A DNA stretch of 64,000 bases from a bacterium (GTDB taxonomy: Bacteria; Zhuqueibacterota; Zhuqueibacteria; Residuimicrobiales; Krinioviventaceae), in NCBI GenBank assembly GCA_963693055.1, contig OY843751.1, forward strand, positions 2,496,001 to 2,560,000. The letters run 5' to 3'. Numbering within the stretch: the first letter of the stretch is position 1; the number at the start of each line of letters is the position of its first letter. The position numbers and the translations under genes are program-made. A model generated the notes under the pieces. The model saw only the letters and a program-made list of their open reading frames with translations. It made no database searches and was not told where the DNA came from. This document shows, one piece after another, positions 5,531 to 64,000 of the stretch.

Positions 5531-6595
5531 TTGTCTATAACAATTTATGATGTTGCCCGCAAGGCAGGTGTAGGCATTGCGACTGTTTCGCGTGCCTTTA
5601 ATGACAGTTCGTTAATTCGAGAGGAAACGAAAAAGCGGATTCTTGAAATAGCGGATGAATTAAATTATCAACCACATGGTTTGGCCCGTGGTTTAGCTCG
5701 CAAACAAACCCATACTATTGCTACAGTTGTTCCCTTCTTTTTTAATTATTTCTTTTTGAATTTGCTTAAAAACGTTCAATATTCACTGTCTAAAAAGAAT
5801 TATGACATGTTTTTATACAGTGTTGATAATCTTGAGCATAAAGAAAACATGTTTGACAAGGTTTTGTATGAAAGAAAATGTGATGGGGTAATGCTTTTTT
5901 CACTTACACTTGATGAAGAATATGCTGAGAAATTTATCAAATCTAATGTACCTGTTATTATTGTAGATAATTATCATTCAAGCCTTGACTCCATTACAAT
6001 CTCTAACAAGAGGGGTGCCAAAGATGCTGTTAATCATTTGATTAGCTTGGGGCACAAAAAAATTGCAATGATTAATGGAAACCTTTCCAGTTTTCCTGCC
6101 AAAGTTAGATTGGAAGGTTTTAAAGAAGCTTTAATGGAAAATAATATTATCAAGAATCCCCGTTACATTATAAATGCTGATCTGGATTTGGGTGAAGATG
6201 GATTTAATGAGATGGCCGGATATCGTGCTATGAAACAATTGGCATCTCTTGGAAAAAACCGACCTACAGCTATATTTATTTCGTCTGATATTCAGGCAAT
6301 TGGGGCCCTTCGTGCTGCTAAAGAAGAGGGAATTAGTGTACCTGATGACTGTGCTATTGTAGGATTTGATGATATTGATTTTGCAAAATATGTTGGCCTT
6401 TCTACTATGCGTCAACCTGTTCATACCATGGCTGAACTTGCCGTGAATCGACTTTTAAGAAGAATTGACAATAAAACCCGTGATAAATTTCAGGTAGAAC
6501 TTTCAGCTGAACTCATTATTCGCGAAAGTTGTGGTGCCCGAAATGTAACGACACACCTTGGTGATATTAGTAGCAACGATGCAATTTTCCTGTAA
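5531..6595 (+). CDS. LacI-family transcriptional regulator
   Basis: TIYDVARKAGVGIATVSRAFN HTH, hinge LARGL, VPDDCAIVGFDD, LIIRES. Confidence 0.95.
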   Translation: MSITIYDVARKAGVGIATVSRAFNDSSLIREETKKRILEIADELNYQPHGLARGLARKQTHTIATVVPFFFNYFFLNLLKNVQYSLSKKNYDMFLYSVDNLEHKENMFDKVLYERKCDGVMLFSLTLDEEYAEKFIKSNVPVIIVDNYHSSLDSITISNKRGAKDAVNHLISLGHKKIAMINGNLSSFPAKVRLEGFKEALMENNIIKNPRYIINADLDLGEDGFNEMAGYRAMKQLASLGKNRPTAIFISSDIQAIGALRAAKEEGISVPDDCAIVGFDDIDFAKYVGLSTMRQPVHTMAELAVNRLLRRIDNKTRDKFQVELSAELIIRESCGARNVTTHLGDISSNDAIFL

Positions 6596-6609
6596 ACTTG
6601 GATTGTTTT

Positions 6610-8418
6610 ATGAAAAAAAATCTAATTTTCATTGTATTATTTATGTCTGTATCACTTTTTGCTCAAACTCCTTCCATCAATTATAGTGTACCAGAATGGA
6701 GTAAAAACGTCATTTGGTATCAGATTTTCCCTGAACGTTTTTGCAATAGTGATCAAAGTAATGGTCCCTTTTTCCATGATATTTTTGGTTCCTGGCCGCA
6801 TGATACTACAAGTGCCTGGGGACTTTCAAACTGGACTGGTGATTGGTATGCTCTGGAAAGGTGGGAAACTGATGGACAGGGATTTTATCATCATGTTCAA
6901 AGACGCAGGTATGGCGGCGATTTGCAGGGGATTATCGATAAACTCGATTATTTACAGGAACTGGGTATAAATGCCATCTATCTAAATCCTGTGTTTGAAG
7001 CTCCATCTATGCACAAATATGATGCTTCTTCATATCATCACATTGATGATAATTTTGGCCCTGACCCCGAATACGATAGAAAACTCATTGCTACTGAAAT
7101 TCCCCATGATCCTGCAACCTGGAAAATGACATCTGCGGATTCACTGTTTTTTGAACTTGTTAAGCAAGTTCATAACCGGGATATGCGCATTATCATCGAT
7201 GGTGTTTGGAACCACGTTGGTATGACATTCTGGGCATTTAGAGATGTTGTTAAAAATCAGGAATCCTCTTTATATAAAGATTGGTTTATCATTAAAGCTT
7301 TTGATAATCCCGCAACACCCGAAAATGAATTCGATTACAAGGGCTGGTGGGACGTAAGAGAGCTTCCTGAGTTGATGGAAGATGAAAACGGATTTAATCC
7401 TGATTTTTGGCAATATGTTAAAAATTCAGTTTCAAAATGGATGGATCCCAATGGTGATGGAGATCCATCAGATGGCATTGATGGCTGGCGTTTGGATGTT
7501 GCTGCAGAGGTGGGTTTTCCTGTATGGCGCAGATTCAGAGACCATGTTCGTACCATTAATCCTGAAGCGTATTTGTCTGGAGAAATTTGGTTCGATGAGG
7601 GAATTGACAAGTGGCTGCAGGGTGATATTTATGACGCGGTTATGAATTATCGCTTTGCTCAAAGTTGTGTTCGTTTCTTTATGGATACGGAAAAGCCTTT
7701 TGCTTTTTCTCCATCTGAATTTGATGATGCATTGCTCGAAATGAGAAATACTTATCCTCACGATGCTCAATATGTATTACAGAACTTGATGGACAGTCAC
7801 GATACAGACCGTATGCCGTCTATGATTATCAATAACAACCGAAATTATGGTTCTGATCATCGTTTGGTAGATAATCCTGATTATGATGTACGTAAACCCA
7901 ACTCACTTGAACGAGATATCCAAAAGCTGATTGTACTTGTGCAAATGACATACATCGGCGCACCTATGGTTTATTATGGAGATGAAGCGGGAATGTGGGG
8001 TGCTTCTGATCCTGATGAGAGAAAACCCATGTTGTGGAAAGAGTTGAAATATGATGATGAAGCTACGCATCCTTTGGGTAAACCCCGCACTATTGATAAG
8101 AATGTTTTTGATCCCGAATTGTTTGCATACTATCAGAATCTGATCAAAACCCGTTTAAAATATGACGCATTGCGAACAGGTGAATATAAAACGCTGATCA
8201 AAGATGATGATAAAAATCTGTTTATATTTAGTCGTAAAGATTCTAAAGATGAATTTATTATTGTAATGAATAATTCTTTTGATGAGCAAACTGTAAAAAT
8301 TAAAGTCGCTGGTAATTCAGCAAAGGATATAATTACTGGTAAAACTGAGACAATCTTGAATAACGAGTTGTCACTGTTATTAGGTCCAAAACAAGGTATG
8401 CTTTTACATATTCATTAA
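6610..8418 (+). CDS. GH13 alpha-amylase family (neopullulanase/cyclomaltodextrinase-like), secreted
   Basis: WYQIFPERF, GGDLQGI, DGVWNH, DGWRLDVA, GEIW, DSHDTDR, YYGDEAG. Confidence 0.92.
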   Translation: MKKNLIFIVLFMSVSLFAQTPSINYSVPEWSKNVIWYQIFPERFCNSDQSNGPFFHDIFGSWPHDTTSAWGLSNWTGDWYALERWETDGQGFYHHVQRRRYGGDLQGIIDKLDYLQELGINAIYLNPVFEAPSMHKYDASSYHHIDDNFGPDPEYDRKLIATEIPHDPATWKMTSADSLFFELVKQVHNRDMRIIIDGVWNHVGMTFWAFRDVVKNQESSLYKDWFIIKAFDNPATPENEFDYKGWWDVRELPELMEDENGFNPDFWQYVKNSVSKWMDPNGDGDPSDGIDGWRLDVAAEVGFPVWRRFRDHVRTINPEAYLSGEIWFDEGIDKWLQGDIYDAVMNYRFAQSCVRFFMDTEKPFAFSPSEFDDALLEMRNTYPHDAQYVLQNLMDSHDTDRMPSMIINNNRNYGSDHRLVDNPDYDVRKPNSLERDIQKLIVLVQMTYIGAPMVYYGDEAGMWGASDPDERKPMLWKELKYDDEATHPLGKPRTIDKNVFDPELFAYYQNLIKTRLKYDALRTGEYKTLIKDDDKNLFIFSRKDSKDEFIIVMNNSFDEQTVKIKVAGNSAKDIITGKTETILNNELSLLLGPKQGMLLHIH

Positions 8419-55530: not shown

Positions 55531-55719
55531 TTAATTGTTATCTCTGAATATTTCCTGTTTCAATATGATTTTTTTGTCAAGTACTTGAAGACCATATTTG
55601 ACCGTCCAACCTTTGGTTGCTAGCATGTTGTGGGAAAGTAATCTGCTTTCAAGATCTGATGTAAATCCAATATAAATTTTATCATATTTTTCAGAATATA
55701 AAACATATGTAATGAACAT
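55531..55719 (-). pseudogene. truncated copy of the GIY-YIG nuclease
   Basis: First 41 codons identical to 55821-56078, then unrelated sequence. Confidence 0.8.
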
Positions 55720-55770
55720 GGAAACCCCTTGAAATAAAAAAGGACCATCAAATGATGATCCTTATTTTAG

Positions 55771-55826
55771 TAGCGGGGGGCGGATTTGAACCGCCGTTCG
55801 CCAACTGGCGAATATGAGCCTCACGA
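55771..55826 (-). other. altered tRNA-fMet-like fragment with hairpin substitution
   Basis: Minus: tcgtgaggctcata-TTCGCCAGTTGGCGAA-cggcggttcaaatccgccccccgcta. Confidence 0.75.
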
Positions 55827-56078
55827 ATTTTTGTTTTGAGATATATAATTGCGAATAAATTCTCTACCTTTAGCAGATTTTAACTGTTTTTCCCGAATGA
55901 TAGCTTTTTTCTTGGATTCAAATTTTTCATTGTAGACAAGTATCCATGGACGAAATTTGACCGTCCAACCTTTGGTTGCTAGCATGTTGTGGGAAAGTAA
56001 TCTGCTTTCAAGATCTGATGTAAATCCAATATAAATTTTATCATATTTTTCAGAATATAAAACATATGTAATGAACAT
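55821..56078 (-). CDS. small GIY-YIG nuclease family protein
   Basis: YVLYS...IYIG.TSDL..RL..HN, RPW, A..RE..LKS..GR. Confidence 0.9.
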   Translation of the reverse strand: MFITYVLYSEKYDKIYIGFTSDLESRLLSHNMLATKGWTVKFRPWILVYNEKFESKKKAIIREKQLKSAKGREFIRNYISQNKNS

Positions 56079-56129
56079 GGAAACCCCTTGAAATAAAAAA
56101 GGACCATCAAATGATGATCCTTATTTTAG

Positions 56130-56171
56130 TAGCGGGGGGCGGATTTGAACCGCCGACCTTTGGGTTATGAG
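56130..56171 (-). tRNA. 3' half of initiator tRNA-Met(CAT), probable att site; not an intact tRNA
   Basis: Minus: CTCATAACCCAAAGGTCGGCGGTTCAAATCCGCCCCCCGCTA; begins at the anticodon loop and no 5' half is adjacent. Confidence 0.85.
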
Positions 56172-56253
56172 TTCAAAGGTTTGACGGGTGTAAGTTGTTG
56201 ATAAAAAATAAGTTGTGGTTTTGCTTTTGGGCTTTTTATGGGTTTGATTTTAG

Positions 56254-57321
56254 TTAAATTTTTAATTTATCAAACCTTTTTTTAAGATTTTCACGGGCTA
56301 TTTGGGTATAGTGTTTTGTCATTGAACCGGTTTTGTGACGAAGCATTTCCTGGGCAAGTCTTTCGTTTTTATCCGAAATTTCGTTCTCCATGATTCGCAG
56401 ACCAAATGTATGCCGCAGCATGTGTGCCGGTGATTTGATATGTTCAAGTCCGATTTTGTCAAGTGTGCGCCGGAATGTTCTTGAAACGGCATCTTTATTA
56501 TTGTTGAACAATTTTTTGTCCGGGTTGCCTGTCAGTAATTTTGCCCGGATGATCATGCGTTGTATGATCTGGTGCATGGGGATCAGTTCAATTTCACGGT
56601 TCTTGTTTTTTTCCAGTTTGATATATCCTTCTTTCAACAATATGTTTCTTTCCCTTAACTCGAGACATTCTGATCTGCGTAATCCCGCATACCGTAAAAA
56701 AAGGAATATAATTCTTATATTACTTTTAGGCAAGTTTTTATAAAACTCTTTTTCTTTTTCCCGGGGGAGTATATTCGGTACCGGTTTCGTTGCTGAAAAA
56801 AACTCAAAATCATCAAAAGGATTTATCGGAATATATTTTTTCCGTTTTGCCCAGGAGAAAATATCCCTCAGACATGACAGCTCTTTGTTTGCCCCGCGTC
56901 TTGCGCGTTGTACCTTTAAAAAATCATCCTGGTCAATCTTGGCCAGTCTCTGTTCCAGCAGGGAATTACGAAAGCTTTCCAGGCGTTCATCGGTGACTTT
57001 ATCAATAGTGAGATGAGGGCCCAGGTAATTTATTAACAATTTATATGAATGCAGGTTACGTTTTACGCTGATTTCAATAGACCGCTTTTCTTTATAGATG
57101 GAACCGAAATCCTGTAATGTAGGATAAATTTTCTGGGTAGAGGGAACAGCGCCGTTAATGCGCTGCTGTTCGATTTCCAGTTCTTTCTGCTTAACCCAGA
57201 GTTCAACGGATCTTTTGGGAGTGTTGGGTGGAAAGTACTTTCGATATCTTTTCCCTTGAACGTTAAACTGGACCCGATAGGCTGTACCGCTCTGCAATTC
57301 AATCTCTTCAATATAAGCCAT
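56254..57321 (-). CDS. tyrosine recombinase / phage-type integrase
   Basis: YAGLRRSE (R), KN (K), HMLRHTF (HxxR), QEMLRH, TKHYT (Y); next to tRNA fragment. Confidence 0.92.
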   Translation of the reverse strand: MAYIEEIELQSGTAYRVQFNVQGKRYRKYFPPNTPKRSVELWVKQKELEIEQQRINGAVPSTQKIYPTLQDFGSIYKEKRSIEISVKRNLHSYKLLINYLGPHLTIDKVTDERLESFRNSLLEQRLAKIDQDDFLKVQRARRGANKELSCLRDIFSWAKRKKYIPINPFDDFEFFSATKPVPNILPREKEKEFYKNLPKSNIRIIFLFLRYAGLRRSECLELRERNILLKEGYIKLEKNKNREIELIPMHQIIQRMIIRAKLLTGNPDKKLFNNNKDAVSRTFRRTLDKIGLEHIKSPAHMLRHTFGLRIMENEISDKNERLAQEMLRHKTGSMTKHYTQIARENLKKRFDKLKI

Positions 57322-57448
57322 AATAATCTATCCACAAAAAATTTTTCTCCCGAATAAAACTGAGGAGTGGTAAAATTCCTGTCAATAGATTTTATGATAT
57401 TTACTGCCAAAAAACAACCGGTTTCGTTTGTATTTTATACAAACGAAA

Positions 57449-58955
57449 GTTCAATCCCATCTTAGTTAATAGGTCTTTTCCAATTCTTTAAATCCTCGTG
57501 ACGGGTACTTCTCCTTTCTTACGTTGTCTCAATCCCATCATAGTTAATAGGTCTTTTCCAATCGTTGTTTTACCGGTACTGGAATCTTCACAAAAAACTT
57601 TAGTCTCAATCCCATCATAGTTAATAGGTCTTTTCCAATATTTCCGGCAGTGTTCGCTACACAATTGGAGACAATAAACAGTCTCAATCCCATCATAGTT
57701 AATAGGTCTTTTCCAATAAACAGCCGCGCTAAAGGCAAAGTGGAAAACTCGTTCAGTCTCAATCCCATCTTAGTTAATAGGTCTTTTCCAATAATCTGTG
57801 ACAAGTCAGGATATTGGTGTTGGTATCATCAGTCTCAATCCCATCATAGTTAATAGGTCTTTTCCAATATGAAATATGTTGCTAAGATTGTTGATGAAGG
57901 TAACAGTAATAGTCTCAATCCCATCATAGTCAATAGGTCTTTTCCAATTCAAAGATACGCTTGATGTGTTTATGGATGAAGTACGTCTCAATCCCATCAT
58001 AGTCAATAGGTCTTTTCCAATGGTGGAAATGTAACTCATATTACAATCGACTATATTGCTATCCAAGAGTCTCAATCCCATCATAGTCAATAGGTCTTTT
58101 CCAATTGAAAAAGCGATTTGTGGCGCAGAAACCAACCGCAAAATTGTGTCTCAATCCCATCATAGTCAATAGGTCTTTTCCAATAATTTAACGCTAATAA
58201 TTTGTCTAGCGGGGTTTATTTTGTCTCAATCCCATCATAGTTAATAGGTCTTTTCCAATTTTTTATAGACAGCCTACAAGTGGCTGTGAAGACTAAGTCT
58301 CAATCCCATCATAGTTAATAGGTCTTTTCCAATTGGCAGTAAGCCGGCTTGGGTTACACACTGGAACAAAAGTCTCAATCCCATCATAGTTAATAGGTCT
58401 TTTCCAATCATTACAAATGCAAAGCTTGATGACAAGTTCCAAAAGTATGATGAGTCTCAATCCCATCATAGTTAATAGGTCTTTTCCAATTACAATTTTT
58501 GCAGCCGGTGAAAAACAATATGTGTTCGAGTCTCAATCCCATCATAGTTAATAGGTCTTTTCCAATCTGTTGCAAAAACAACAGCACCCTTTGCACTAAC
58601 GTCACTGTCTCAATCCCATCATAGTTAATAGGTCTTTTCCAATTGGCTTGAGCAACTAGCTCTTATAACAAGGTGAAAGATTTCTAGTCTCAATCCCATC
58701 ATAGTTAATAGGTCTTTTCCAATTGCGCTATGGTGACTTGAAAGGTGTAGACAGTTTTCCTGTAGGTCTCAATCCCATCATAGTTAATAGGTCTTTTCCA
58801 ATCAAAACTGGCAGTGCTGACAAAATCGGAAAAATTGCGTCTCAATCCCATCTTTTCTTATAGGTCTTTTCTGATCAAAGAAAGTGATTAATGTGAAAGG
58901 TAAATTAGTGAGAGTGGTGTCTCAATCCCATCTATTCTAATAGGTCCAAATACAT
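57449..58955 (-). CRISPR. CRISPR array, 20 repeats / 19 spacers (36-47 bp)
   Basis: 37-bp repeat GTCTCAATCCCATCATAGTTAATAGGTCTTTTCCAAT on +; minus strand ends ATTGAGAC (8-nt handle type); degenerate copies at 57449, 58839, 58919. Confidence 0.97.
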
Positions 58956-58983
58956 AAAAAGGCGGATTGTATACCCACCTTTA
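58955..58983 (-). terminator. terminator-like hairpin between cas operon and array
   Basis: Minus: aaaggtggg-tatacaa-tccgccttttt (G-U pairs, U-tract). Confidence 0.5.
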
Positions 58984-59042: not shown

Positions 59043-60047
59043 CTATTCTTTCATCAGAAAATTAATTTCCTGGGTTAATTTTTCAATGAATTGATCTTTA
59101 TGAGTCACATCATACTTTACACATCGTTTATGTCGTAGATCGAAAGGTATATCATTTGTATCCTGAGTTAACATGATCACTTTTTTCTTTTGAGCATTGG
59201 CAAGACCTAATTCGTAAAAAACATTGGGATTTTTATTTGTCAAATCCGCAATGATGATCGCTGATTTCAATATATTTTCTTCAACTTTATCCATAATACC
59301 ACCTTGAAATATCTCTTCATCAACTCTTACACATTTTAAATTCATACTTTCAGTAATGTTTCTAATCCACGTATAAATTGTATCAAAGTTGGGGTCAAAT
59401 GGCATTATAACAAAGACAAAGTTTCTGTCAAAATTTATTCCATACGGACTGTATTTTATCAATTGTTCAGTGCCCGGTATTGGACGAGCATTGTTGGGAT
59501 CATATTCAGAAAAAAGGTAAAACGCATCCATAGACTGAATTTTTATGGCTGAACTTACAGCACCTAATGACATTATTTTGGTACCGCCTGTCAAATCAAT
59601 AGCTAAATTTTCAATTTCATATTTGTATTGATTTAGCATTTCATCTTTCCATTTAAAAATTTTACTCTCTACATTATTTTGTTCATCACTACTTATGTTG
59701 ATTATTTCGTACTTTAACAATGGATTCACTTTTTTTATCTCGTTTATGAATAAATCAAAGTGATTATTAAAATGATATATTTTTGATATATTCGAAAATC
59801 CGAAAGTAACAAGTTCTGGCTTCATTATGGCAATAAACAATGCTATGTTTTCTATAGTAAAGCCAAAAGGTACAAAAATGGATTTATATTGTGAATTAGT
59901 AATTCTATTTTTAACCAGTTCATTAGTGTTTTCTTTTAATTGTTCAACACTTAATTTGAAAATTCTTTCAAAATAGAATTCAATATTAAAATTTGATTGT
60001 TCCCAAATTTTGAACAAGTTTTGTAATAATTTTCGTCTATTTACCAT
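59043..60047 (-). CDS. CARF domain fused to nucleoside-2-deoxyribosyltransferase-like (NDT/DRHyd) domain; putative type III effector
   Basis: CARF: IFVPFGFTIEN, IDLTGGTKIMS, RPIPGTEQL. C-term: FVIMPF, RVDE, IIADLT.KNPNVFYELGLA, IPFDL. Confidence 0.8.
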   Translation of the reverse strand: MVNRRKLLQNLFKIWEQSNFNIEFYFERIFKLSVEQLKENTNELVKNRITNSQYKSIFVPFGFTIENIALFIAIMKPELVTFGFSNISKIYHFNNHFDLFINEIKKVNPLLKYEIINISSDEQNNVESKIFKWKDEMLNQYKYEIENLAIDLTGGTKIMSLGAVSSAIKIQSMDAFYLFSEYDPNNARPIPGTEQLIKYSPYGINFDRNFVFVIMPFDPNFDTIYTWIRNITESMNLKCVRVDEEIFQGGIMDKVEENILKSAIIIADLTNKNPNVFYELGLANAQKKKVIMLTQDTNDIPFDLRHKRCVKYDVTHKDQFIEKLTQEINFLMKE

Positions 60048-60048
60048 T

Positions 60049-60963
60049 TTAATTCCTTATATTTCTTGAAAAGTTGTTCAATATTCTATCTTTAATAATT
60101 ACTGATGGATCTTCTCTGTTTATTTTTTTGATTTTCATTTGTTCCAAATCATTGATATCTAGCAATACTATCAATCGAACCTCATTTCTTATTGAATTGG
60201 AAAAGGCTTTCTGCATTAATCCCCAAATAGAGCTTTGATCTGTTGGTTTAAAGCGACATATTAATAAAGTTAATGGTACTTTTGTGAAAATGGTATCCTG
60301 AAAAAAAAGGGTGTATTTGAAGCATTGCATAAAATCATTTGGTTTCGGTTTTTTATTTTTTACTTCAACAATAATATTGTCAAAATAAAATCCTGTTTTT
60401 TCAATTGCATTGAAATGGTCAAATTTTTCATAAAAGCCATCGAAAACAATACCATTAACATTCTCTTGTTTTCTTTTCAAGTCATGTAAGTACAACATAT
60501 CTATAAATGTCAAAACTAACTTTTCGAATGGTTTTCCAAATTTTTTATCACCAAAATCGGAATTCAATATTTGATTAAATAAATATTCAAGTTGTTCATC
60601 GATTCTCACAAGATATTGTTCATATAAATTTATTAAATCATCAGCACTAGTCCGGATCGGTCCCATTATAGTCTTTGTTGATTTACTATTTGTTGTAAAT
60701 AATTGAATTTTTTCTTCAACATCGAGTAATTGTTTGTTGTGATTATCTATACGTATATTGGGATTATTAAAATAATTGAGATTTTCAAATAAAGGTTTAA
60801 GGATTACTGGTGTCCTTAAATCGTACAACGATGAAAGTTTTTTTAGAGATTTCGAGAGCTTTTCATCGAGTTTATCTTTCAAATCTAAAATCTCTCTTTG
60901 AAAATCTTTTTCTAAATCATAAAGTGGGGCTAAATCGTTCTCTCTGTCGTCAATCATATTCAT
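60049..60963 (-). CDS. PD-(D/E)xK restriction-endonuclease-like (Mrr-like) protein with helical N-terminus
   Basis: GKPFEKLV, FDG, IIVEVKN, QCFKY (QxxxY), LDINDL; tightly packed between csm4 and the CARF gene. Confidence 0.6.
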   Translation of the reverse strand: MNMIDDRENDLAPLYDLEKDFQREILDLKDKLDEKLSKSLKKLSSLYDLRTPVILKPLFENLNYFNNPNIRIDNHNKQLLDVEEKIQLFTTNSKSTKTIMGPIRTSADDLINLYEQYLVRIDEQLEYLFNQILNSDFGDKKFGKPFEKLVLTFIDMLYLHDLKRKQENVNGIVFDGFYEKFDHFNAIEKTGFYFDNIIVEVKNKKPKPNDFMQCFKYTLFFQDTIFTKVPLTLLICRFKPTDQSSIWGLMQKAFSNSIRNEVRLIVLLDINDLEQMKIKKINREDPSVIIKDRILNNFSRNIRN

Positions 60964-60972
60964 ATTTACTTG

Positions 60973-61908
60973 TTATACTATAAATGATAGACCATATCTA
61001 TGAATAGTGTGTACATCTAAAAATAGATCAGGGGTTACGTTTACAACCTGGCCATTTATGGGTTTAGTAAATATTGATCCCTCTGCCACCATTTTGCATT
61101 CTTTTCTTTTTAATTGAACAGAAGTTGAATATGAATGGAACCAGCCTCTTCTATTCAAGATTTTGAATGAATTCAAATGAACAGCCTCATTATTCTTGGG
61201 TGAACAGAGTGATAAGTTGATGTATGTTCCTTTTGGTTTTTGTTCCAATAATTCTTTCCATCTGGCTTGATTGTCAATTTGAGTCATTTTATAAATAAAG
61301 TGCCCATTACCTACACTTCTATCACCACCCAATCCTTCTTCTGCCAAGAGATTTAAACCAACAGTAAATAATTTAATAAATTCACTATCATTGATCTCGA
61401 CAATGAAAAATAATCCTGCACCGTATTTAAAGGAAAAACCGAATGATTCATATAATTGTGTAACTGTCGATATTCGATCAATTGTAACACGTGGACGAAA
61501 AGTTGGAAACATTATCTCGTTTAGGGGGTCGTTAAATTCTCTGGACAATAACGAATTTTCATCATTAATAATTGTTTTGAAATCGTTCAAATCCAAAAAA
61601 TGAACATCTTTTAATTTGGATTGATAAAAGTTTGATGTTCCCCTTGGTGTGGGCAAATAAAATGTATTGCCCATGTATGGAAAAGCAGAGGTCAAGCGGA
61701 AGGGAGGTGTCTCCGAATTTAATTTTTTTATCAATACTTTAATCCAATTGTTATATCTATTACATTCGGGTAGCCTCATCCATTGGCTCACCAATGCGCT
61801 AAACAGGGTGTCGGAGTGAATGATGCCCTTAAACTCATCATCATCTGATAACAAGCTTGATGACAGGGTTAAAGAACGCTTGAAAGAAAGTTTAATAAGC
61901 CAAAACAC
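60973..61908 (-). CDS. csm4: type III-A CRISPR RAMP Csm4 (Cas5 group)
   Basis: IIHSDTLFSAL, LTSAFPY, RVTIDR, GLGGDRSVGNGHF, EGSIF, HRYG; AAGGAGG then GTG at 61908. Confidence 0.93.
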   Translation of the reverse strand: MFWLIKLSFKRSLTLSSSLLSDDDEFKGIIHSDTLFSALVSQWMRLPECNRYNNWIKVLIKKLNSETPPFRLTSAFPYMGNTFYLPTPRGTSNFYQSKLKDVHFLDLNDFKTIINDENSLLSREFNDPLNEIMFPTFRPRVTIDRISTVTQLYESFGFSFKYGAGLFFIVEINDSEFIKLFTVGLNLLAEEGLGGDRSVGNGHFIYKMTQIDNQARWKELLEQKPKGTYINLSLCSPKNNEAVHLNSFKILNRRGWFHSYSTSVQLKRKECKMVAEGSIFTKPINGQVVNVTPDLFLDVHTIHRYGLSFIV

Positions 61909-62785
61909 TGCTGCTTGCCTCCTTGAGAAAATTGATGATTTCATCAATATAGCTGCGCGCTTGTTTGATATCAAAGGATTCACTTTGTAATTCTGTTGAA
62001 TTTTTTTCATCATCCCCGGTGTAATAATAATCGAGTGAACGGGCAAAAAAACTGGAAAAATTAAATTTAATTTTTCCGTATCCACGGGATGAATACCCAC
62101 CTAAAGCTTCATCTTCAATAATACTCATAGCGGCGAGTATATTTTGAAGATCTTTTTTGACTGTTTCAGCGTTAAATCTAATGTCCTTGTTTTCTTTTGA
62201 AATAATTTCTACAGCATAGATCATTTCAAAATTGAAAATACTGTCAGGCAAGACCCTTTCTACGCGACGTGGATTTGCAGACATATCCTTACGATCAATA
62301 CCGGTTTCGGTTTTTACTTCTGTAAATTCTGTTTGTTGTGTAATAATACTTGAATCCAACAAACAATCTCGAACTAATAGAGCAGAAGGCATATTTTCAG
62401 CTTTGGGTTTTTTTACCAGTTTTGATCTATCATCTCCACTCGATCCAAAAATCCTGCATACATCGCAGGTAATAGCAAGGTCGAAATCTTCACAACAGTG
62501 TATGTTTACTTGGTTGCGAAATGTCCCAATGTTACGGTTGTTTTCCAATTTTTCAATTTTCCCATTAACACTACGTGTTCCAACTTTCTCTACAGTACTA
62601 CGCAATTTACCCTTTAGTGAACTACCCGGTATGTAAGGCAAATTACTTGCGCTATCCCTGATAATTGGTAAATCCACACCGCCAATTTGCATAGATTCAT
62701 TTGAACCACCGATATGTAAGCCTGTTTTTATGACGATATTTCCTTGAAAGTATATTTTACCCAATAACAATCTTTTTTGTGTCAT
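61892..62785 (-). CDS. csm3: type III-A CRISPR RAMP Csm3 (Cas7 group)
   Basis: TGLHIGG...IGGVD (catalytic Asp position), PYIPGSSLKGKLRS, CRIFG, EVKTE..IDR..ANPR..ERV, LGGYSSRGYG. Confidence 0.95.
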   Translation of the reverse strand: MTQKRLLLGKIYFQGNIVIKTGLHIGGSNESMQIGGVDLPIIRDSASNLPYIPGSSLKGKLRSTVEKVGTRSVNGKIEKLENNRNIGTFRNQVNIHCCEDFDLAITCDVCRIFGSSGDDRSKLVKKPKAENMPSALLVRDCLLDSSIITQQTEFTEVKTETGIDRKDMSANPRRVERVLPDSIFNFEMIYAVEIISKENKDIRFNAETVKKDLQNILAAMSIIEDEALGGYSSRGYGKIKFNFSSFFARSLDYYYTGDDEKNSTELQSESFDIKQARSYIDEIINFLKEASSSVLAY

Positions 62786-62806: not shown

Positions 62807-63295
62807 TTAATCCCTACCACCATGAAATTTGTGATATGCTACTACAGATTCGACGAATTTGCACAACATTTCATAATCCTCTATAGTATATATAAAATCA
62901 AAAAGTGGATTAATTACTTCAAAAAATGGTGTTACTTCTTTATTCTGTCTGGCCCTTGCGTTTGCAAGTTGTGGTTTAAGTAGAAAAATTTCTGGTTTGA
63001 TATTCCTTTCGAATAATTCTTGTGAATTTTCTTTTAATTTTACAGCTATAGTCCGTGCCTTGATATTTATCATGCTTTCATAAAAGCGCCTTAATTGAGC
63101 AGATTTTAGCCTAATGTCAGGGCTGGCGAGAATTTTTCCTAAAGCATAGCTACAAACCACTAACTTCTCGCCAGTTAAGATTTGTGCTAATGAAACTGCG
63201 CTTTCATTTTTTCCTATAATTTTATCAAGAATATTTCTTGCCTTGTGAAGGTTCCATTCCCTTGATAATCTCTCTTCAATAGGTTCATAATTCAT
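62807..63295 (-). CDS. csm2: type III-A small subunit Csm2 (Cas11)
   Basis: SAQLRRFY, LLKPQLA, FVESVVAYHKFHGG. Confidence 0.9.
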   Translation of the reverse strand: MNYEPIEERLSREWNLHKARNILDKIIGKNESAVSLAQILTGEKLVVCSYALGKILASPDIRLKSAQLRRFYESMINIKARTIAVKLKENSQELFERNIKPEIFLLKPQLANARARQNKEVTPFFEVINPLFDFIYTIEDYEMLCKFVESVVAYHKFHGGRD

Positions 63296-64000
63296 TATGA
63301 TTCCCTCCTGATTTCGTAACATAAATACACCATGTCAATGGAATATGCATGGATGCAAATTTTTCCAGATCATATATATGAAAATAATTTAAAGACCTTT
63401 CGTTCAAGTCTTTGTTTTGTCTCAACTTTTCTGACATTTTTGTCAATAGCCAAATTATCTGTGGGAGGTATAGCATCCCCTCATTATACCAGGTTTGTAA
63501 TAATTTTAATGCAACCTGAAAAAAGTGTCGGGGTATGCGTGCATTATTCAAATCTAATAAAAGCTGTAGAGGCTCAACGACAAAGTTTTGTATTTCATTG
63601 GTGAATGATTTGGATGTTGAATTGTATTTGTTACTTTTTAAGGCAAGTTCTAACCGTTGGTAATTTTGTACTTGCCTTATCTTAAGCTTTTCGGTTATTG
63701 ATTTTTTCCAATATTGATACTGATCAGTAAAAAAAGGGGTTAAAGATGATTTACGCAAGCAAGAGCCATCTTTGAACAAAGGGCATGTAAAGAATTCCTG
63801 GCGGCATGTCCAGCAAGGCTGCAAATTGTTTTTTGCTTCGAGTAAAGCATTCATAGAGATATGAGCCATTTTATTGATTGGATATTTTGAATGGTGTACA
63901 GTAAAACCTCCACTTATTCCGATATCGATATTATTGCATACGTACTGTTCAAAGGTTTGTGTTATCTCCAGGGAAAGCTGAGCAACATCATTCCAAGCTC
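63285..64000 (-). CDS. cas10: Cas10/Csm1 C-terminal part; 5' end outside window
   Basis: Frame open from window end: AWNDVAQL...F..YVCNN.DIGISGG...KYPI..MA....ALLEAK (Palm2 region after GGDD); directly upstream of csm2. Confidence 0.85.
   Translation of the reverse strand, partial: AWNDVAQLSLEITQTFEQYVCNNIDIGISGGFTVHHSKYPINKMAHISMNALLEAKNNLQPCWTCRQEFFTCPLFKDGSCLRKSSLTPFFTDQYQYWKKSITEKLKIRQVQNYQRLELALKSNKYNSTSKSFTNEIQNFVVEPLQLLLDLNNARIPRHFFQVALKLLQTWYNEGMLYLPQIIWLLTKMSEKLRQNKDLNERSLNYFHIYDLEKFASMHIPLTWCIYVTKSGGNHNEL

Follow-up and report, generated by a model that had tools for sequence, protein, structure and literature searches.

The gene described here closes a type III-A CRISPR operon in the window, the whole stretch of 64,000 nt that we analysed. 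In the closed, 100%-complete host genome (G000) the operon runs cas6, cas10 (783 aa), csm2, csm3, csm4, a gene that we call ORF X, the effector gene and a CRISPR array (Table 1). The effector frame contains every one of the motifs quoted in an earlier sequence-only reading of the window, and that reading also placed it correctly as the last gene of the operon; a weak terminator-like hairpin comes next, and the array lies beyond. It recognised the type III csm context as well; what it overlooked was ORF X, the absence of csm5 and the absence of an HD domain. The gene immediately upstream of the effector is this nuclease-fold ORF, not csm5, with 1 nt between its stop codon and the effector ATG.

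Table 1. Features at and around the effector gene, numbered on the scale of the window
Feature	Position	Strand	Remarks
CRISPR array	57448..58946	-	36-nt repeat, 19 copies within 9 mismatches and 1 more degenerate copy near 58919; spacers 37-48 nt
Terminator-like hairpin, 3' of effector gene	58958..58982	-	weak: 1 found vs 0.9 expected by chance
CARF-NDT effector gene	59043..60047	-	334 aa; N-terminal helices and CARF (1-203); MilB/DNPH1/TIR-like domain (207-334), Glu279
ORF X	60049..60963	-	304 aa; predicted helical bundle (1-124) and PD-(D/E)xK nuclease fold; D175, E200-x-K202, Q213; usual csm5 slot
csm4	60973..61908	-	GTG start at 61908, picked by homologue N-termini and GGAGG upstream
csm3	61892..62785	-	
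csm2	62807..63322	-	
cas10, 3' part	63285..64000	-	full gene 783 aa, to 65636; GGDD kept, HD domain absent
cas6-like ORF	65641-66627		outside the window

The effector gene and ORF X share a GC content of 27-28%, against 32-36% in cas10 and csm2-4. The cas6-like gene has 47% GC, a contrast with cas10 and csm2-4 that suggests a separate origin. A perfect sigma-70-like site at 59431-59404 was discounted as a promoter because its TATAAT comes from Val-Ile-Met codons. We infer the orientation of the array from its repeat, which ends in ATTGAGAC on the minus strand. Comparison of the array with a phage collection gave no match, and its true spacers gave no convincing self-match of at least 20 nt. 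A tyrosine integrase lies beside the array's far end, together with a GIY-YIG ORF flanked by two 226-nt direct repeats (window positions 55571-57321). Two more arrays of the same repeat type lie elsewhere in the genome (G000:C1:2565328-2565675 and 2798170-2799025); they are partly degenerate and one has a duplicated spacer, and a 150-nt stretch of the second is repeated nearby and near 2562873 and 2565714. A separate cas cluster about 1 Mb from the csm5-less operon (L118; G000:C1:1494879-1504999), which by its ORF starts looks like type I-B, comes with a separate array and carries the only cas1 in the genome.

A type III-A operon and its Cas10

A metagenome scan yielded 23 confirmed loci among 243 pattern matches, or 16 clusters at 90% identity. 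The order cas6-cas10-csm2-csm3-csm4-X-CARF-NDT is common to the host genome and the metagenome loci, four of which (L084, L089, L092 and L103) span the operon from cas6 past the effector. csm4 lies upstream of the effector in 18 of the 23; four others lack upstream DNA, and in one ORF X alone is seen. Among the long in-operon Cas10s, the host's included, 12/12 carry GGDD and RMDxDN and none carries the HD motif, with the proviso that two end at a contig edge and one has a doubtful start. These proteins form one clade with support of 98/97, albeit in a small tree of which they make up 12 of 15 rows, the other three being outgroups. In the full-length host Cas10 the cyclase motifs are intact as YAGGDDL and RMDVDN, as the assignment to a signalling type III system had supposed, and the linkage to type III is strict.

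Like type III-A, the host operon has cas6, cas10, csm2, csm3, csm4 and an array. It departs from type III-A in having no csm5 that we could find, no HD domain and, at the csm5 slot, a PD-(D/E)xK gene that is apparently not NucC. It also differs from III-A2, which according to the part of the 2025 classification available to us is without Cas11 and uses NucC (PMC12669027), whereas the host operon has csm2. For csm5 itself, the complete genome gave no TIGR01899 match over the cut-off. Two control Csm5s that match each other at 1e-12 matched 0/23 metagenome loci and nothing in the genome, a result that is compatible with a very divergent Csm5 beyond the short contigs. In the two nearest Cas10 loci of the phylum, csm5 comes directly after csm4.

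The missing csm5 raises the question of whether the operon is a decaying type III-A remnant whose signalling was lost together with that gene, which we regard as extremely unlikely. Decay would fit the failure to find Csm5 in the genome, the absence of cas1 and cas2 at the host operon (the only cas1 being that of the distant cas cluster), the degenerate repeats beside the effector and the Asn284 of the host genome's effector copy, where 48/51 family members have His. However, the csm5-less order recurs among loci that are only 37-46% identical, the Cas10s fall into the single clade described above, cas1 is adjacent at L092, L094 and L103, and the catalytic motifs are invariant.

Two metagenome loci carry further systems close by. 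At L085 (8002-9501) the CRISPR operon is followed within about 1.5 kb by genes for a CBASS cyclase and for NucC, and L084 and L089 have similar ORFs; this NucC and the type III system could have cyclic nucleotides in common. At L100 (3366-6523) another type III-A operon, whose Cas10 carries an HD domain, starts just downstream of the effector and an array and could supply Csm5 in trans at that locus.

ORF X in the csm5 slot

Judged by its predicted structure, ORF X is a nuclease fold of the PD-(D/E)xK (Mrr/FokI-like) kind. Its nuclease domain comes closest to the catalytic domains of R.BspD6I (R.BspD6I2: Z 11.9, rmsd 3.4, 152 aligned) and FokI (Z 11.2), with NucC at Z 8.1, and D175, E200, K202 and Q213 are found in 15/15 sequences. 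Atlas leads to Mrr_cat at 0.88-0.89 fall under 0.9 and count as leads only, and Foldseek returned nothing for ORF X at E<=0.001. PADLOC gave no NucC match for it, while a real NucC, that in L085, scored 1e-61. A degenerate Csm5 was considered and rejected, as hhalign gave a probability of 0.1% and no similarity. We recognised no nucleotide sensor in ORF X, found no longer fused form of it in a weak search, and saw no three-domain fusion among the best 150 representatives. It should be noted that the homologue search that took the ORF X alignment as its query was insensitive, returning 2 proteins though at least 16 loci carry the gene.

ORF X is intact in 16 of the 19 loci with upstream DNA (12/15 clusters at 90% identity). 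In the remaining three it is split by what by eye is an IS/transposase-like ORF (L086), cut to its 102-aa helical part (L081) or absent (L093). Because the effector is whole at all three, we read ORF X as a second, dispensable arm, with the caveat that the loci were found via the effector and are biased towards intact effectors.

The position of ORF X would fit a subunit role within the Csm complex, in which the helical bundle docks in the place of Csm5 and the nuclease replaces the HD DNase of Cas10, with the CARF-NDT protein acting in parallel. Such a role would be compatible with the explanation that we prefer for the effector (below), and we consider it improbable. The slot is that of csm5 in the two nearest Cas10 loci of the phylum, the in-operon Cas10s have no HD, L081 retains only the helical part, and type I variants offer a precedent, a fusion of Cas11 with a PD-(D/E)xK nuclease, as described in the part of the classification available to us (PMC12669027). 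On the other hand, hhalign found no similarity between ORF X and Csm5, and L093 has neither csm5 nor ORF X. Moreover, the nearest outgroup Cas10 locus (L126) is without the HD motif too, yet it keeps csm5 and has no ORF X match, so loss of HD does not require ORF X.

A relay in two steps, in which the cOA-bound CARF-NDT protein makes a second nucleotide signal (compare the Thoeris TIRs) or binds ORF X, and the Mrr-like nuclease then kills, also seems unlikely to us. It would account for ORF X sitting directly upstream and being intact at most loci, for the 1-nt spacing, for the low GC common to both genes, for the catalytic D175, E200 and K202 in 15/15 and for the lack of a recognisable sensor in ORF X itself. 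Against it, the effector stays intact in the 3/19 loci where ORF X is broken or absent, and neither the weak search for longer ORF X forms nor the best 150 representatives gave a longer or three-domain fused form.

A wider possibility, which we put forward tentatively and rate well below even odds, is that the operon is a distinct, minimal variant of type III-A whose Cas10-Csm2-3-4 works without Csm5 or HD and drives a two-protein response. The product or dimer of a cA4-activated DNPH1-type glycosidase would activate the Mrr/FokI-like DNase of the csm5 slot, or the DNase would be carried by the Csm complex where Csm5 otherwise sits. If true, a CRISPR system would here contain either a relay by second messenger or a nuclease recruited as a subunit.

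The two domains of the effector

The homologue search gave 1375 matches among 2732 candidates, with both domains in 55 of the best 120, mostly at 37-46% identity. The CARF-NDT fusion occurs in 67/270 proteins compared; 68 passed the two-domain filter, and one of these (P0155) was dropped as it is without the CARF motif. Members are 323-351 aa long, with one of 370 aa, and mean pairwise identity is similar for the C-terminal domain (55%) and the CARF (54%). The full-length fusion is sporadic, being found in 1/167 genomes of the host phylum, as is ORF X. A search of genome contigs returned mostly domain-only matches, the 80 analysed of 599 and nine phylum loci being without the CARF part, ORF X or cas10. 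Viral contigs yielded no relatives, the 22 records from a plasmid search each covered less than 80% of the query, and the ESM Atlas had no usable match for the effector. Outside CRISPR the C-terminal domain is very common on its own: at E<=0.001 it has 17,672 cluster representatives, and of the best 150 nearly all match this domain only.

The proposed N-terminal CARF is well supported. Pfam CARF_Card1 matches residues 113-179 above its cut-off (E 4.5e-6) and is matched by 49/51 family members, and motif I and motif II (DxTxGxK) are present together with a CARF fold. In the AlphaFold2 model (51 homologues, pLDDT 89.8), residues 7-203 match Thermus thermophilus Csm6 (TtCsm6) with Z 18.4, rmsd 3.1 and 177 aligned residues. 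The effector is the sole CARF_Card1 match in the complete genome, which has one Cas10. TtCsm6 is a cA4-activated, self-limiting CARF-HEPN protein, and its CARF fold, as far as the accessible part of the source describes it, is alike down to the N-terminal helices and a mobile loop (PMC10897365); it has HTH and HEPN domains, in place of which our effector has the glycosidase-type domain.

The ligand residues of TtCsm6 are retained. G62, K157, Y177 and E194 are each found in 51/51 sequences, the last three aligning with TtCsm6 K137, Y161 and E179, and Y182 (49/51) aligns with Y167. In TtCsm6, K137 is required to bind cA4 and Y161 to cleave it, while E179 reads an adenine, according to the accessible part of that study (PMC10897365). 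This conservation suggests that cA4 is the likely ligand of the CARF. Self-limiting ring-nuclease cleavage built into the CARF, serving as an off-switch, is possible and is uncertain because, of the TtCsm6 cleavage residues T59/S60, K137, Y161 and N164, the equivalents of T59 and N164 are not conserved (the Lys and Tyr are found in 51/51, S/T at position 64 in 39/51). We recognised no separate ring nuclease within the host operon.

The C-terminal domain had been assigned to the nucleoside deoxyribosyltransferase type, with a Glu at the usual catalytic position. The Glu is there: Glu279 is found in 51/51 and aligns with the catalytic YELG Glu of DNPH1, and F212, P216, F217, R241, D243 and N275 are likewise invariant (51/51). 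The type assignment is upheld in part. Residues 208-334 match MilB (Z 15.1, rmsd 2.3, 125 aligned), DNPH1 (Z 14.7) and the SPARTA TIR (Z 14.5) in what amounts to a tie, and scores of this kind, taken from a predicted model, cannot separate NDT from TIR. The domain has a flavodoxin-like fold with the Glu in ELG, as in the NDT/DNPH1/MilB superfamily. Sequence profiles favour DNPH1/NDT over TIR. At E<=0.01, the NDT family in Pfam matches 37/43 sequences against 3/43 for CAP12-TIR, and among PDB profiles DNPH1/Rcl scores E 2e-5 against 1.1 for STING-TIR, the former value being the best match of this subfamily to any solved structure, so that it has no close solved relative. For the effector itself the Pfam Nuc_deoxyrib_tr match (E 6.9e-5) scores 23.4, below the cut-off of 28.8, and that to CAP12 TIR is weaker (E 0.018), while PADLOC PDLC00733, labelled 'Effector, TIR', matches at E 2.2e-9. 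This NDT-like domain is also present as tandem copies and in neighbouring genes (L017:9923-12280; P0056, P0057, P0061 and P0066); it matches PDLC00733 there too, so that some 'TIR' labels may cover this NDT-like subfamily.

What does not hold is the deoxyribosyltransferase active site. With the first strand taken as gap-free from the starts of the structural ranges, the invariant F212 falls on Y24 of DNPH1 and Y7 of CtNDT, and the column of DNPH1 Asp80 is V/I (V/I255) in the family, so that the active-site Tyr and Asp of 2'-deoxy-specific NDT and DNPH1 proper are both replaced. MilB, too, has Phe at the first-strand site. A Tyr there confers 2'-deoxy specificity, and NADase TIRs mostly have Phe or Ala, as stated in the accessible part of the source (PMC11204291). 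Because Phe occupies the deoxy-selecting site and the NDT Asp is absent, the domain is likely a hydrolase of ribonucleotides or NAD+ rather than a deoxyribosyltransferase. We infer NAD+ as the first-ranked substrate and adenine nucleotides as the second.

The effector thus has the fold of the MilB/DNPH1 (Rcl)/NDT N-glycosidases (with the Z scores given above) and their YELG Glu, and it differs from them and from the group of the retron Ec86 effector in having Phe for Tyr, V/I for Asp, Asn273 for the phosphate-binding Ser/Asp, and a CARF fusion. The retron Eco1 (Ec86) effector cleaves NAD+. It is not among the fold matches listed for the CARF-NDT protein, and kinship between the two is still possible. 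A preprint describes it as NDT-like, with E106 and depletion of adenine derivatives, and the term 'NAD' is absent from the available part of its text; it nevertheless offers a precedent for such a fold serving as an antiphage toxin (bioRxiv 2023.08.16.553469).

One could also imagine that the C-terminal domain excises bases from nucleic acid and that ORF X or host enzymes cut the resulting abasic sites, a scenario that we find very improbable. NDT domains in conflict systems have been proposed to act on DNA as ricin-type enzymes do on RNA, according to the part of that work available to us (PMC3710099), and a nuclease gene does adjoin. However, every one of the top structural matches has free nucleotides or NAD+ as its substrate, the effector has no nucleic-acid-binding domain, and only a few residues link its CARF to the catalytic domain.

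A proposed mechanism and its precedents

Based on the folds, the conserved residues and the operon, our preferred explanation, to which we give a probability of roughly 0.6, is that the protein is a cA4-gated N-glycosidase that acts as a dormancy effector and works like Cat1. Target RNA would trigger cOA synthesis by a Cas10 that has kept its cyclase motifs; the CARF dimer would then bind what is likely cA4 and close. For the Glu279 domain we predict cleavage at the N-glycosidic bond of a ribonucleotide, with NAD+ or an adenine nucleotide as the most probable target, and this would likely be toxic, leading to dormancy or arrest of the infected cell. The high frequency of intact ORF X leaves room for a joint mechanism with that gene.

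Cat1, a TIR-CARF NADase, is the closest precedent. Both proteins are type III CARF effectors with a Glu-dependent N-glycosidase fold (the Cat1 TIR matches with Z 12.4, rmsd 2.0 and 112 aligned residues), and the available part of the Cat1 study places it mostly alongside HD-less Cas10, which the host Cas10 is too (PMC12162218). However, the domain order is opposite, Cat1 has 258 aa against 334 aa, there is no sequence match at E<=10, and the effector is DNPH1/NDT-like in sequence with a TtCsm6-like CARF. It is therefore not a Cat1 member, and its working would be Cat1-like only if NAD+ is the substrate. TSR1 was also considered as the same protein and set aside, being a TIR-SAVED-Crn4 according to the part of the preprint available to us (bioRxiv 2026.09.16.751991).

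The view that no CARF-NDT effector has been characterised agrees with our full-text literature searches, which found no paper on such an effector or on a csm5-less CARF locus; the architecture may be listed in the CARF classification of Makarova 2020. Supplementary Table 2 of the 2025 classification, in the part available, has no CARF-NDT entry, but Cat1 is missing from it too (PMC12669027). As a computational entry, on the other hand, the module has probably been seen before. Altae-Tran 2023 is credited with detecting CARF-TIR effectors, as stated in the accessible part of a later source (PMC11229360), and the available part of its Table S3 has a '(CARF_TIR_Mrr)' at 5702-6689 (PMC10910872). 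The label fits a CARF, a TIR-like domain and an Mrr nuclease, the 987 nt (~328 aa) fit the family lengths, and the range fits the position of the effector on contigs that start at cas10 (5940 in L082, 5739 in L088). By size, position and label alone, this is probably the CARF-NDT/ORF X module. As far as the accessible parts of that paper go, it is listed only, with no experiments, NDT/DNPH1 assignment or mention of csm5 loss ('csm5' occurs 0 times in the main text).

In summary, this is a real, conserved CARF effector with a predicted MilB/DNPH1-type domain, and it is apparently uncharacterised in the literature. Interest in it is tempered by Cat1, which already ties CARF to NAD+ cleavage, and by the probable computational listing of the module in 2023. 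If the proposal is true, the cOA effectors gain an N-glycosidase from the MilB/DNPH1 branch, and a very large, uncharacterised family of defence-type domains would become accessible through a ligand-gated member. Furthermore, the conserved csm5-less operon makes it possible to test crRNA maturation and signalling by a natural III-A complex without Csm5, as well as the role of the nuclease that occupies its slot.
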